Positions 16,094 to 22,235 of a DNA stretch of 26,281 bases are shown piece by piece (within the stretch, counting starts at the first letter, position 1; the number at the start of each line of letters is the position of its first letter). The stretch lies in contig CAZOFN010000001.1 of NCBI GenBank assembly GCA_964579195.1, positions 1 through 26,281 on the forward strand, written 5' to 3'. A program made the position numbers and the translations under genes. The DNA comes from an uncultured Candidatus Saccharibacteria bacterium (GTDB lineage Bacteria > Patescibacteriota > Minisyncoccia > Sungbacterales > JACQCQ01). The notes below the pieces were generated by a model. The model was not told where the DNA came from. It worked only from the letters and a program-made list of their open reading frames with translations, and searched no databases.

Positions 16094-16336
16094 ATGCCGC
16101 GCGGTATTTCGAATTGGACGTTTCGCGACATCCAAGCGTTTTTACTGCAACGTGGTTTTACACTTCACCACGTGCGGGGAAGCCATCACTATTTTAAGAG
16201 ATATACCAACGACAGATTCTTTATGACGCATGTCCAGCATCATGGATCGAGATCTATTCCTGAAGGGACAATGAACGCTATCATTCGGCAGTCTGGAATT
16301 CCTAAAGAAGAGTGGGTTAGTTGGACAGAAGAATGA
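16094..16336 (+). CDS. HicA family toxin
   Basis: 80 aa with FLLQRGF...RGSHHYF and IPEGTMNAIIRQSGI. Confidence 0.9.
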   Translation: MPRGISNWTFRDIQAFLLQRGFTLHHVRGSHHYFKRYTNDRFFMTHVQHHGSRSIPEGTMNAIIRQSGIPKEEWVSWTEE

Positions 16337-16369
16337 AATTTGGGAACTCCCTTCCGGCAAATACGTAGG

Positions 16370-16392
16370 TTCTAAAGTCGTTCAACAACCGC
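16370..16392. repeat. Unit-distal repeat A, copy 1 (putative att site)
   Basis: TTCTAAAGTCGTTCAACAACCGC, exact. Confidence 0.95.
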
Positions 16393-16400
16393 CGCACTAC

Positions 16401-16429
16401 TTGACAGACAATATAATACGTGCTAGGGT
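16401..16429 (+). promoter_or_regulatory. Possible sigma70 promoter of unit 2
   Basis: TTGACA, 17 nt, TAGGGT with an extended -10 TG. Confidence 0.5.
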
Positions 16430-16435
16430 GTTTTT

Positions 16436-16602
16436 GCTGATAGCAGAAGCTCGGCTTCTGCCAGCACCCACCCCAGGGCACTATGTGCCCCATGCGTGAC
16501 GTACCGTATTCCTAAGGGGCCTATGGCTCCGCCTCATCCTTTCGGGGAATTGAGAATGGATACGGCCACGGACATCACGTGTGAGGTGGGCTTTTTCTTT
16601 TT
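16436..16602 (+). ncRNA. Unassigned ~165-nt structured RNA
   Basis: Stems 16443-16450/16454-16461, 16467-16472/16585-16590, 16476-16481/16485-16490, 16492-16502/16572-16582, 16504-16511/16558-16565 and 16516-16521/16525-16530, plus TCCT-TTCG-GGGA. Ends in CTTTTTCTTTTT; no credible plus-strand ORF. Confidence 0.55.
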
Positions 16603-16644
16603 CTCTAAAAAGACTTGGTAATTCTTTTTTAGTATATCTATAAG

Positions 16645-16699
16645 TTCTAAAGTCGTTCCCACCACCAGGCGAGGCTCGCCCGCGGGCGGCAACAACCGC
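16645..16699. repeat. Repeat A, copy 2, split by a 32-nt GC-rich insertion
   Basis: TTCTAAAGTCGTTC (16645-16658) + insertion (16659-16690) + AACAACCGC (16691-16699). Confidence 0.9.
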
Positions 16700-16759
16700 C
16701 GCCCCGAAAATCTCAAGCATTGAAGCATGGAATTTTTATACCGGTTACTGGACATCGAA
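16699..16759. repeat. Unit-proximal repeat B, copy 2
   Basis: Ungapped 48/61 identity with 15643-15703; abuts repeat A copy 2. Confidence 0.85.
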
Positions 16760-16815
16760 CCTAGTATTTCAACGGGGCGCCTTTACTTTTCTTAGTTTCT
16801 AGTTAGGGTTGGAGT

Positions 16816-17589
16816 ATGAAGTCAAAAGATGTAGACATGCTTGCGATGTTGGTTCTGCCAACTATTGCCACATGGATAACGGTCACTTTTGATACAAATC
16901 TCTTCGTTTCGGTTTTCTTGTTTCTTGCCCTGCCTTCTCTTTATCTAATTCTGCGCAATCCTGGTATCGCGCGAAAAAGCGTCATCTTCGCGCTTCTCTT
17001 TTCTGTCCCGCTTTCACTTTTTGTAGATACCCTTGCCGCCATTAACGGTGCTTGGGTCGTTCCCGATACAGTCTTTCCGTTCCATATTCTCGGCGTCTCG
17101 ACAGTCGAGGTGTATCTTTATGGCCTATTTTGGGTACTCTTCTCGGTTCTCTTTTACGAGCACTTTTTTGATAAAGGGAACAGGAGGGATAAATTTTCGC
17201 CGATCACTAAATACTTGATTTATCTCTTTATTATCCTTTCCCTTTTGGTGGTAACATTCTTTTTTGCAAATGAGAGTTGGCTTTACATACCATATATGTA
17301 TTTTCTAGTGGGAACTATATTTGTGTTTCTTCCTGTAGTCGTTTTTCTTTTTTATTATCCGCAATTTTTCAGACGGTACGTAGTGATCGCCTTATACTTT
17401 TTCTTTGTTCTACTCACGTTCGAACTCGCTGCTTTGCATAACGAGCAATGGATCTTCCCTGGGCAGTTTATCGGCTTTATTCAGGTGTACGGTTATCGAT
17501 TTCCCATCGAGGAGCTCATTGTGTGGATGCTTTTGGCAACCCCCGCTCTTCTCGCCTGGTATGAGTTCTTTGCCGACGACAGGAAGTAG
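16816..17589 (+). CDS. Membrane protein with two lycopene-cyclase-domain-like repeats
   Basis: Highly hydrophobic, with the duplicated pattern D/E-x-x-A...W...G...(V/I)E (VDTLAAINGAW...GVSTVEVYLY; FELAALHNEQW...GYRFPIEELIV). Confidence 0.6.
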   Translation: MKSKDVDMLAMLVLPTIATWITVTFDTNLFVSVFLFLALPSLYLILRNPGIARKSVIFALLFSVPLSLFVDTLAAINGAWVVPDTVFPFHILGVSTVEVYLYGLFWVLFSVLFYEHFFDKGNRRDKFSPITKYLIYLFIILSLLVVTFFFANESWLYIPYMYFLVGTIFVFLPVVVFLFYYPQFFRRYVVIALYFFFVLLTFELAALHNEQWIFPGQFIGFIQVYGYRFPIEELIVWMLLATPALLAWYEFFADDRK

Positions 17590-20450: not shown

Positions 20451-20451
20451 C

Positions 20452-21480
20452 ATGAAAACGGTCTACAGTATCGGCATTCTTCTCGTTGTGCTTGTCAGTG
20501 CAGGAATTTTTATTCTGTGGCTTTCGCCGTCTGCGGATATGAGCCCTGCATCAATTAAATTTGGTGCCGATCGATATAAGGAAATTACCAATCCTTCCGG
20601 CTTCGTGAATACCGAACAAATCAGTATTGGCGAATCAGTGGGTAAAAAAGTTATCCTGGTTGATTTCATGACCTACTCCTGCATCAATTGCCAGAGAACA
20701 TTCCCCTATCTCAATGCTTGGTACAAGAAATATAAAGATGAGGGGCTTGAAATCGTCGGTATCCACACGCCGGAGTTCGCTTTTGAGAAGGATATCGAGA
20801 ATGTGCGAAAGGCGATGAAGCAGTACGGTATCGAGCATCCGGTGGTACTGGATAACAACTACGCAACTTGGAATGCATACGGCAATAAATATTGGCCGCG
20901 GAAATATTTAATTGATATCCACGGAAACATCGTTTATGACCATGTTGGCGAGGGCGCATATGAAGAAACAGAAGTGAAAATCAAAGAACTACTTGCCAAA
21001 CGGGCCTCTGTGTTGGGCGAACGTATGAATATTTCGGGTGATTCACTTGCGGCAGAGGAAATTTTAACGTCGGGGCAAGAGGCTGTTAGCCCGGAGGTAT
21101 ATTTTGGAGCTGGCCGGAATGAACTTCTCGGAAATGGAAAAAGGTTTATGGCGGGAAAGCAAACGATTTCTCTACCAAGTACATTTTCATTAAATACCCT
21201 CTATCTGGGAGGGGTGTGGAATATAGCCGGCGAGTATGCGGAAAACGTTAGTCCCGCAGTCGTCATGTTTAAGTACCGCGCACGGGATGTGTACATGGTG
21301 GCGGGCTCAGGGGGTAAGACTTCGGTAGAAGTGCTGCGAGACGGAGCGGTGGTCAAAACAGTTGAGGTTTCAGAGGAGGGCCTGTACACACTTATCGAAA
21401 GTCCTGAGTACGGTGAGCACGTCCTTGAACTGCGAATTAGGGAGTCAGGATTGCAGGCTTTTACCTTCACGTTTGGATAG
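20452..21480 (+). CDS. TlpA/redoxin protein with DipZ-like C-terminal domain
   Basis: LVDFMTYSCINCQRT, IVGIHTPEFAFEK, YWPRKYLID, HVGEGAY, SPEVYFG and QAFTFTFG. Confidence 0.88.
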   Translation: MKTVYSIGILLVVLVSAGIFILWLSPSADMSPASIKFGADRYKEITNPSGFVNTEQISIGESVGKKVILVDFMTYSCINCQRTFPYLNAWYKKYKDEGLEIVGIHTPEFAFEKDIENVRKAMKQYGIEHPVVLDNNYATWNAYGNKYWPRKYLIDIHGNIVYDHVGEGAYEETEVKIKELLAKRASVLGERMNISGDSLAAEEILTSGQEAVSPEVYFGAGRNELLGNGKRFMAGKQTISLPSTFSLNTLYLGGVWNIAGEYAENVSPAVVMFKYRARDVYMVAGSGGKTSVEVLRDGAVVKTVEVSEEGLYTLIESPEYGEHVLELRIRESGLQAFTFTFG

Positions 21481-21516
21481 ACGGTAGACGACGTAATCTT
21501 TCCAAATAGAATAAGT

Positions 21517-21539
21517 TTCTAAAGTCGTTCAACAACCGC
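21517..21539. repeat. Repeat A, copy 4
   Basis: TTCTAAAGTCGTTCAACAACCGC, exact; followed by a 24-nt hairpin insert (21540-21563). Confidence 0.95.
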
Positions 21540-21614
21540 ACTTCGGACAAGCTCAGTGCAGGCCGCAAAAAGAAAGAAGTGGCACGCGGCTTCGTCGCAT
21601 GCTATAAATACCTT

Positions 21615-21908
21615 ATGCAGAATTCTTACGTTAGAGCCGCAAAATTGCCCGTAACTATCTTAAAGCAGGGTAAGCGATATGTGGCTCACTCGCCCTCTTT
21701 AGACTTGTCTACTTCGGGAAAATCGGAGAAGGAAGTCAAAAAGCGCTTCGAGCAAATCGTGGGGATTTTTTTTGATGAACTCGTTGAGGCTGGTACTCTC
21801 AATCCGGTATTGACTGAACTAGGTTGGAAGAAAGTCGCCAAACAATTCCAGCCGCCCCAGATTGTTTCTCAAAAGTCTATTAATGTCCGCGTGCCAGTAA
21901 TAGCGTAA
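21615..21908 (+). CDS. HicB-like antitoxin (start moved to ATG 21615)
   Basis: LPVTILKQGKRYVAHSPSLDLSTSGKSEKEVKKRFEQIVGIFF. Confidence 0.8.
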   Translation: MQNSYVRAAKLPVTILKQGKRYVAHSPSLDLSTSGKSEKEVKKRFEQIVGIFFDELVEAGTLNPVLTELGWKKVAKQFQPPQIVSQKSINVRVPVIA

Positions 21909-21912
21909 CTCC

Positions 21913-22143
21913 ATGGGCCGACTCGGCTCTATTCACTGGAAGGAATTTGAGAAGTTCCTGTTTTCGCTTGGTTGCGAGTTTAAACGCGAGGAAGGCGACC
22001 ATCGTATTTGTTGGAAGAAAGGTATGAAGCGACCGATTGTCATCCCGCGCGACAAAGACCTGCCTGCTTTTATCATTCGGAATAACTTACGATTACTCGG
22101 CGTTTCTACCGAAGAATTCCTAAAGTATCTCAAAAGACGGTAG
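21913..22143 (+). CDS. HicA family toxin
   Basis: FEKFLFSLGCEFKREEGDHRI...RPIVIPR...IIRNNLR. Confidence 0.88.
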   Translation: MGRLGSIHWKEFEKFLFSLGCEFKREEGDHRICWKKGMKRPIVIPRDKDLPAFIIRNNLRLLGVSTEEFLKYLKRR

Positions 22144-22183
22144 TATTTTCATAAACTCGGAAACTTAGCTTTCAGATCTAAGG

Positions 22184-22206
22184 TTCTAAAGTCGTTCAAC
22201 AACCGC
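22184..22206. repeat. Repeat A, copy 5 (end of array)
   Basis: TTCTAAAGTCGTTCAACAACCGC, exact, followed by CGCCA. Confidence 0.95.
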
Positions 22207-22235
22207 CGCCAGAGAATTGAAAAGTCTAGCGAAGC

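Follow-up and report, generated by a model that had tools for sequence, protein, structure and literature searches.

Repeats in a genomic island array of a Patescibacteria genome as the probable stranded 3' end of a large serine recombinase gene

Introduction

Judged by analogy, the closest precedent for the locus described here is the group of ssrA islands of Dehalococcoides, in which the gene of the serine integrase DsiB lies on the reverse strand beside attL, one of the two attachment sites that flank an integrated island, and invariably overlaps this site at its 3' end, lacking a stop codon within the island (McMurdie et al., 2011, PMC3146451). These islands stand in tandem downstream of the tRNA-like gene, are bounded by short repeats and in several cases lack the integration module, and it was suggested that dsiB is perhaps complete only on the circular form or beside a neighbouring island (PMC3146451). 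Here we analyse a 26,281-nt stretch of DNA (the window), which makes up the first 26 kb of a 38.5-kb contig in the genome of an uncultured Candidatus Saccharibacteria bacterium (GTDB lineage Patescibacteriota, Sungbacterales; GCA_964579195.1, contig CAZOFN010000001.1), and in particular a repeat, Repeat A, that separates the units of an array of small gene cassettes. The genome amounts to 822 kb in 104 contigs and is 95% complete. We believe that Repeat A is very probably, as read from its sequence, the P arm of the attachment site of an element with a large serine recombinase (LSR), together with the last ca. 20–30 codons of the recombinase gene, stranded by integration, and that the array would be a series of recombinase-less islands.

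As far as the two can be compared from its description, the DsiB system shares with this locus a serine integrase open reading frame (ORF) that overlaps attL, and islands in tandem, some of them without integrase. It differs in its target, which is the transfer-messenger RNA gene (crossover within the T-loop, direct repeat of 20 bp), and also in its machinery, since DsiB is CcrB-like and belongs to a six-gene integration module with the small serine recombinase DsiA, whereas here there is one PF00239 gene and the targets are tRNA genes. A conserved tail and a half-site that mimics the T-loop are not described for the DsiB system.

Integration alters the integrase of Mx8 (IntP/IntX). Both in Mx8 and in SSV the integrase ORF extends across attP and the target is a tRNA gene, the two enzymes being tyrosine recombinases (PMC4383910, PMC7253208). 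In SSV integration splits the integrase (PMC4383910, PMC7253208), whereas the serine recombinase studied here would lose only its last ca. 20–30 codons, and the long identity segments copied from the tRNA in Mx8 and SSV contrast with a core of 5 nt in our case. The LSRs of A118/LI, Bxb1 and phiC31 resemble the present family in the order of their catalytic, recombinase and zinc-ribbon plus coiled-coil domains, in their short core and in a 5-bp offset between attB and attP, but their attP lies outside the int ORF and their attB in protein-coding genes. Serine-recombinase islands also stack at one site in SCCmec (CcrAB), with att-like repeats between them and some units devoid of a recombinase; unlike here, the target is rlmH/orfX, there are two recombinases and no part of an ORF is stranded. 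Integron arrays and clusters of attC sites lacking integrases (CALINs) are superficially alike in the order of cassettes and repeats and in their toxin-antitoxin genes, but here IntI and a folded attC are both missing and the enzyme is of another class. According to the Islander paper (2014) serine integrases were not known to target tRNA genes, and Durrant et al. (2022) make no mention of tRNA. Our own literature search found no serine-recombinase clade targeting ordinary tRNA genes, no half-site mimicking the T-loop and no conserved swapped tail, and the targeting of tRNA genes by T-loop mimicry seems to be novel.

Results and Discussion

The repeat and its reading frame

A repeat finder and an alignment revealed five copies of Repeat A in the window, all on the plus strand (Table 1), and the rest of the 822-kb genome contains one more, the sixth, on contig C16. 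The exact 23-mer TTCTAAAGTCGTTCAACAACCGC is found at positions 16370, 18508, 21517 and 22184, the diverged copy being found at 16615–16700, and the reversed 23-mer, used as a control pattern, gave 0 matches. Repeat A is built of two blocks, one near-invariant, of 23–28 nt, and a weaker one (consensus roughly ACTYGGNAAYT) that lies upstream of a variable spacer of 18–27 nt. The spacer measures 18, 21 or 27 nt, i.e., the copies differ by whole codons only, and each copy is found 4–90 nt past the stop codon of a plus-strand gene or gene group.

On the minus strand the frame of the repeat reads RRLLNDFRT, then 6–9 residues and then [FL]P[SNA][FLI]. The original prediction had proposed that the repeat encodes the conserved C-terminus of an orphan protein, and the translations on which it was based are right: VVRRLLNDFRTYVFAGREFPNF, NDFRTYRYTKKELPSLF, LQRLLNDFRTLELKMKFPSF, VRLLNDFRNLFYLERLRRLPSI and WRRLLNDFRTLDLKAKFPSL plus a stop codon, for copies 1 to 5, respectively. 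The same can be said of the codon changes listed between copies 3 and 5, of which CTA/CTG, AAA/AAG and AGC/AGT are synonymous and GAG/GAT exchanges E for D; these two copies also differ at ATG/GCT (M/A) and TTT/TTA (F/L). As had been noted too, no gene body exists upstream of the copies, where the minus-strand ORFs are only 52–79 amino acids (aa) long. The DNA of the NDFRT block is the same in five of the six copies, while the neighbouring spacer is scrambled. In copy 2, RRLL and NDFRT are out of frame with each other owing to a GC-rich insertion of 31 nt (16659–16689), which lies between GTCGTTC and CAACAACC and has hairpin potential. Copy 4, with RN for RT and one codon missing between the motif and the core, is probably no longer functional as a site.

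A recombinase and an island at tRNA-Trp

The genome contains only one serine recombinase (PF00239), encoded on the minus strand of C16 (ca. 560–2165) and adjoining the gene for tRNA-Trp (C16:483-554). Its frame is open through the antisense tRNA, reading ...EDIPTL-RGMRESNPRLLIWSQ..., and the sixth copy of Repeat A (C16:9188-9210) is located 8.7 kb from the recombinase 3' end, at the other end of the island, where it comes after a paralogue of the 236-aa gene of the window. The island also contains genes for an HTH_36 protein, a C5 DNA methylase, a Z1-domain protein and Vsr, a cargo that looks like a small defence island. CCGCA is common to both junctions (CATTCC-CCGCA-AAGTAGG and CAACCG-CCGCA-CCGTGAG), and these are in one codon phase on the recombinase strand, TTG CGG at attL and GTG CGG at attR. 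With a shared core in the same phase, the joined ends of the island would therefore restore a gene reading ...IPTL-RRLLNDFRTLEYEKRFPAF. The P arm of this element, 32 nt long, is identical to that of the window, and the C16 recombinase could therefore in principle act on the window sites in trans.

Relatives in other genomes

A search with the first 406 residues of the C16 recombinase gave 1,546 relatives at E <= 1e-20, with the domains PF00239 (Resolvase), PF07508 (Recombinase) and PF13408 (zinc ribbon); the C-termini of the best 120 were inspected. A [DN][DE]VRT tail was present in 81 of these 120. In the closest tailed homologues (P0002, P0004, P0011, P0013 and P0099, with 62–64% identity) the protein ends in ..LRGILNDVRTYF..(E)xFP[VI]F or ..LPFEADIPSLRGILNDVRTYF..(E)xFP[VI]F, e.g., ...IPSLRGILNDVRTYF...FPVF, and these foreign tails match the RRLLNDFRT..FPSF of the window in both of its blocks. 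At least 14 of the best 120 end in antisense T-arm peptides, such as ..LRELRESNPRL.. or ..GRLDSNQRP.., and at least 12 stop 2–3 codons past the ..IPxLR junction. The recombinase frames of P0014 and P0005 run into tRNA-Trp. The gene of P0013, which has an intact tail, is found in a 55–100 kb contig with Replic_Relax, DUF87 and DUF932 genes that looks like a plasmid or an integrative and conjugative element, and its junction DNA is the same as Repeat A at ca. 20 of 21 nt, though the proteins are only 62% identical. It had been anticipated that full-length proteins with this tail would turn out to be recombinases, or would read into an antisense tRNA when integrated, and the homology search bears this out: they are LSRs, and many of their relatives read into an antisense tRNA.

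A second set of 80 loci was retrieved with the family alignment from GTDB species genomes, 75 of them with a scorable recombinase ORF. A tRNA gene overlaps or abuts the recombinase 3' end in 34 of the 75, and in all 34 it is antisense (tRNA-Asn in 15, Gln in 8, Trp in 5, Ser in 4, and Ile, Leu, Lys and Arg in one each). We also built a hidden Markov model (HMM) of the tail, with 34 positions, for which the tails of full-length foreign recombinases were the only source. With this model, orphan tails were detected upstream of integrated recombinases at L021 (E 1.5e-13), at L029, L052 and L040 (two at each), at L076 and at others; the orphan tail upstream of the integrated recombinase at L015 carries ..EAFPDF. 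Of the 28 matches of the model, 27 share the strand of the recombinase (binomial p = 2e-7). At L021, TGCTG is found at both junctions, which bound a 6.9-kb island at tRNA-Gln. When our own genome was scanned with the same model (32,869 six-frame segments), the C16 copy came out at rank 1 and copies 1, 5, 2 and 3 of the window at ranks 3, 4, 7 and 9.

The recombinase family was found in 24 of the 62 genomes of the order to which the window belongs, with up to five copies in a genome of 0.8 Mb. It is common in Patescibacteria (Candidate Phyla Radiation, CPR) and is also present in Verrucomicrobiota, Bacteroidota, Omnitrophota, Gemmatimonadota and other phyla. The phage database contains one unannotated relative, a distant one with 24% identity.

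Proposed mechanism

An attP inside the 3' end of a recombinase gene, probably that of an LSR, with the tail stranded by integration at the far end of the island, was the mechanism put forward in the original prediction, and it is supported by the homologue tails, the antisense tRNAs and the C16 island. On the circular element the recombinase gene would read across attP, with a body ending in ...IPxLR, then the core and, after it, RRLLNDFRT and FPSF with a short spacer in between. When the element integrates at the 3' end of a tRNA gene (in this case tRNA-Trp), the DNA would be swapped at the core; at attL the gene would run into the antisense tRNA (...LR-GMRESNP...), and the P arm that encodes the tail would land at attR, the far end of the island. 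The array in the window would then be made of a 3' fragment of tRNA-Trp plus a relic of the P' arm, followed by cargo units each closed by a P arm, in other words by islands that would have arrived serially and accreted, their recombinase genes being deleted later.

The junctions of the array can be read along these lines. The 22-nt tRNA-Trp fragment would provide the left junction with its bacterial (B) arm, and this junction (tRNA-Trp fragment, CCG and copy 1 of Repeat B, the second repeat of Table 1) would be an attL in which the recombinase gene has been cut to ca. 60 nt. On the minus strand, Repeat B copy 1 runs on into the tRNA fragment as ..FFSG-RGMRESN, which parallels the attL of C16 (..PTL-RGMRESNP). 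Recombinase codons are still kept at two junctions, at Repeat B copy 2 and in the flank of Repeat A copy 3. In the former, Repeat A copy 2 and Repeat B copy 2 form an internal attP-like junction (P-core-P') that reads ..LRFSG-RRLL, and a TTGAA motif 17–21 nt from the core is retained in Repeat B copy 2 (the spacing against P0039 was judged by eye). In the latter there is a short P' relic reading ..KPTLHLQ-RLLNDFRT, as against ..IPTL-R in the recombinase. From such sequence patterns we infer that recombination took place at these sites.

Site architecture

The (V/F)RT codons of the tail are written on the recombinase strand as GTTCGAAC or TT(T/A)AGAAC, which is the same string as that of the antisense tRNA T-loop. 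In P arms (C16, L011 and L021) T[CA]GAAC is found 18–23 nt from the core, and in tRNA B arms (C16, L013 and L021) the T-loop motif (TCGAAC, SN in the peptide) is found 13–18 nt from it; family-wide and at the protein level, this is 'LR + 4 residues + DVRT' versus 'LR + 3 residues + DSN'. It is an established rule of LSR sites that the zinc-ribbon motif of attP stands 5 bp further out than that of attB (Rutherford et al., 2013, PMC3783163), and the 5-bp offset seen here fits this rule. Most likely the universal T-loop is what the zinc-ribbon domain reads, with a mimic of it in attP, which would explain both the tRNA echo of the repeat and the extreme conservation of the NDFRT DNA.

This echo of a tRNA 3' end on the plus strand had already been remarked upon. 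The likeness is real, but Repeat A is not a tRNA remnant, and would represent the outer half-site motif of the recombinase mimicking a T-loop. As a tRNA remnant Repeat A was rejected on two counts, ARAGORN and Rfam finding only tRNA-Ile in the window, and a foreign attP (L011) showing that the element itself carries a T-loop-like stretch.

The core shared by attL and attR is short (CCGCA in C16, TGCTG at L021). In the reconstructed attP of C16, TTCTAA and, on the P' arm, TCGAAA occupy mirrored positions 17–22 of the two arms, as judged by eye and without shuffle statistics, while the inner positions show little symmetry.

The tail as a protein feature

The distal [FL]P[SNA][FLI] block is located 45–60 nt from the core, beyond any LSR half-site. 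In a broader form, [FLYVI]P[SVIN][FL], it recurs where the DNA has diverged, namely in the window copies, in the five closest tailed homologues, in P0090-94 and P0121 and in the orphan tail at L015, and in homologues further removed a long helix is conserved in the tail (..AALIYAHFKKEFG). The distal motif, the whole-codon spacers and the tail helix argue for selection on the peptide while the tails were in live genes. The codon changes between copies had been taken as a signature of coding selection. Only the distal FPSF block ([FL]P[SN][FLI]), which recurs where the DNA differs, argues for peptide selection, and the NDFRT block is probably conserved owing to the DNA site. The AlphaFold model of a full-length homologue (mean predicted local distance difference test, pLDDT, of 81) has a confidently predicted core, the expected LSR domain order and a long coiled coil, and to judge from the model the tail is likely a flexible extension.

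A different view would be that the tail is only a DNA site, the ORF simply running across attP until it meets a stop, with no role for the peptide. The T-loop-like half-site motif falls exactly on the best-conserved block of the peptide, N/D-D-V/F-R-T, the DNA of this block is more conserved than coding needs (ca. 20/21 nt between 62%-identical proteins) and the confidence of AlphaFold for the tail is low; moreover, McMurdie et al. thought the equivalent overlap of dsiB unlikely to be functional (PMC3146451). We consider this less likely than not, given the second motif, which lies outside the half-sites and where the DNA has diverged, the helix kept in more distant homologues and spacers that differ between copies by whole codons only.

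If the tail does matter as a peptide, its swap may alter the activity or the stability of the recombinase. We tentatively suggest that the swap could be a regulatory switch, by which activity, stability or directionality would differ between the free and the integrated form. Equally tentative is the reading that joins all these elements, i.e., a widespread LSR family that reads tRNA 3' ends by their T-loop and carries attP in its own ORF, so that its C-terminus is rewritten by a topological switch. Were it true, the same motif would be DVRT before integration and DSN after it, and the switch would possibly replace or join a directionality factor.

Alternatives and difficulties

The order of the array, with cassettes on the same strand each followed by a repeat, some of them toxin-antitoxin pairs, in a window without integrase, is also what an integron-like cassette array would look like, Repeat A being then an attC-type site, or the whole a CALIN. 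This is highly improbable and can be regarded as largely refuted, by the lack of a tyrosine recombinase, of hairpin potential and of the core-site pattern. PF00589 is absent from the matches in this 95%-complete genome, while all of 14 control genomes (14/14) gave matches, and the folding of the five copies as DNA showed no hairpin potential beyond that of shuffled controls (z from -0.23 to +1.44). The alignment shows no R''/R' inverted core (RYYYAAC...GTTRRRY) in Repeat A, the units carry up to five genes with their own promoters, and a serine-recombinase P arm plus tail accounts for the whole repeat. Hardly credible, and even less so than an integron, is that Repeat A could be a terminator, a regulatory RNA or an element like the repetitive extragenic palindromes, with its likeness to a peptide due to chance. 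The position of every copy, 4–90 nt downstream of a plus-strand stop codon, would suit such an element, but the repeat has neither a stable fold nor a match in Rfam, true terminator hairpins are found elsewhere (e.g., past copy 5 and ahead of copy 3), and the HMM built from foreign tails picks Repeat A copies genome-wide in the right frame. A structured RNA or terminator was rejected on the Rfam and folding results.

Several observations weigh against a stranded recombinase tail as the origin of Repeat A, or against parts of that scheme. The window is without any recombinase gene, and the C16 recombinase, the only intact-looking one in the genome, has a scaffold gap of 10 N within its gene. 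With canonical LSRs, attP does not recombine with attL or attR, and tandem arrays are left unexplained by textbook directionality. No excised circle or empty site was seen in the contig pattern scans or at the corresponding locus of a family relative (G002). The left end of the array is a 22-nt piece of tRNA-Trp beside the tRNA-Ile locus, not a full tRNA-Trp, and the flanks past copies 1, 4 and 5 of Repeat A have no convincing P' relic. Taken singly, the E-values of the Repeat A copies with the tail HMM are weak (0.018 to 0.6 in the scan of the genome, and 0.18 to 3.6 for the copies of the window). A degenerate P-arm pattern gave 0 matches in genome contigs, and the reconstructed attP junction of C16 and the 23-mer gave 0 matches each in metagenome contigs; this P arm is known from the genome of the window and from G002 only. 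Finally, residues 546–610 of the AlphaFold model, which include the tail, have a pLDDT of 37–52, and a folded functional tail is unsupported.

If Repeat A is indeed a stranded recombinase tail, a repeat in a streamlined CPR genome becomes a readable record of the accretion of islands, stranded tails would be a signature for delimiting islands in metagenome-assembled genomes, and a large uncharacterised clade of serine integrases is exposed. T-loop reading would be a simple structural account of how one family moves among tRNA-Asn, Gln, Trp, Ser and others, and recombinase engineers may take an interest in enzymes with a universally conserved tRNA element as their target. With attP inside the gene, the recombinase protein would differ before and after integration, a form of self-regulation that is testable and analogous to Mx8 IntP/IntX and to the 'suicidal' integrases of SSV, but in another recombinase superfamily.

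Layout of the array

The array begins downstream of tRNA-Ile, and beyond copy 5 of Repeat A there are a terminator hairpin and housekeeping genes. The features are collected in Table 1; the unit ending in Repeat A copy 2 is only 250 nt long and ORF-free.

Table 1. Features of the array in the window, from left to right (coordinates are positions in the window).
Feature	Start	End	Strand	Basis or remark
22-nt fragment equal to the 3' end of the genome's tRNA-Trp, T-loop to discriminator	15624	15645	+	comparison with C16:483-554
Repeat B copy 1, read as decayed P' arm plus last recombinase codons	15643	15706	-	78% identity to 16699-16762
Cargo 1: unannotated ORF of 111 aa (likely antitoxin), then HicA toxin	15754	16336	+	Pfam HicA_toxin, E 9e-13
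Repeat A copy 1, orphan tail RRLLNDFRTYVFAGREFPNF plus core CCGCA	16320	16399	-	repeat finder, tail HMM, translation
Repeat A copy 2, disrupted by the 31-nt insertion, NDFRTYRYTKKELPSLF	16615	16700	-	
Repeat B copy 2, read as P' arm / recombinase 3' relic, abutting Repeat A copy 2	16699	16762	-	
Cargo: membrane protein resembling seven-transmembrane proteins, and 236-aa gene with weak response-regulator similarity	16816	18390	+	
Repeat A copy 3, LQRLLNDFRTLELKMKFPSF	18443	18535	-	
Cargo: helix-turn-helix regulator, unknown ORF, thioredoxin, DsbD-like membrane protein, redoxin	18587	21480	+	
Repeat A copy 4, degenerate, VRLLNDFRN...LPSI	21470	21541	-	missed by tail HMM
Cargo: ORF of 109 aa and HicA toxin	21579	22143	+	Pfam HicA_toxin, E 7.6e-10
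Repeat A copy 5, WRRLLNDFRTLDLKAKFPSL then stop; right end of the array	22152	22211	-	

In G002 the same synteny was found (rnhB and tRNA-Ile, then small Zn-ribbon protein and mnmA) with no island, which makes the 6.6-kb array an insertion peculiar to the lineage of the window. The syntenic locus of G002 contains no tRNA-Trp fragment either, and the original target is therefore not defined by this genome. Between tRNA-Ile and the small Zn-ribbon gene of G002 (L102, G002:C53), where the window has its island, the sequence reads as an apparent DEAD-box helicase gene. The tRNA-Ile that is uninterrupted in G002 has a counterpart in the window that appears split, with its 5' part near 15304 and its 3' half at 15554–15596, and between the two halves there is a complete second tRNA-Ile (15446–15518) together with other insertions.

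The 236-aa gene (17680–18390) belongs to no Pfam family, and only its C-terminal half is weakly response-regulator-like. Its relatives stand directly upstream of Repeat A in three places, in the window, on C16 (L009, 8359–9066) and in G002:C41 (L006, ca. 1790–1090, minus strand), and each of the copies has a conserved terminator hairpin and a common stretch of ca. 60 nt ahead of Repeat A. The gene possibly belongs to the backbone of the element, e.g., as an accessory or directionality factor.

Other observations

The PF00589 result means that no XerC/XerD-type gene was detected anywhere in the genome. An ORF of the LAGLIDADG type is found directly upstream of tRNA-Trp, or running into it, on C16 (L009, 199–492), at L006 and at L013 (3620–4420); the PF14528 annotation is present only in L013, an unrelated metagenome contig. 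Short frames that resemble a junction plus tail (..SSNWLGVLDDVRT.., ..SAPALRCELNDVR..) were found at C75:2-97(-), C10:6563-6772(-), C71:3365-3520(+) and C82:3-59(-), and are probably relics of other recombinases of the same family with different P arms. Ahead of several cassette genes there is a perfect hairpin over a TTGACA box (TTGACAAAAGCGCC-N4-GGCGCTTTTGT), at ca. 8290–8330 and 9625–9665 on C16 (L009) and at ca. 1850–1815 at L006, which may be a combined terminator and promoter module common to the islands.

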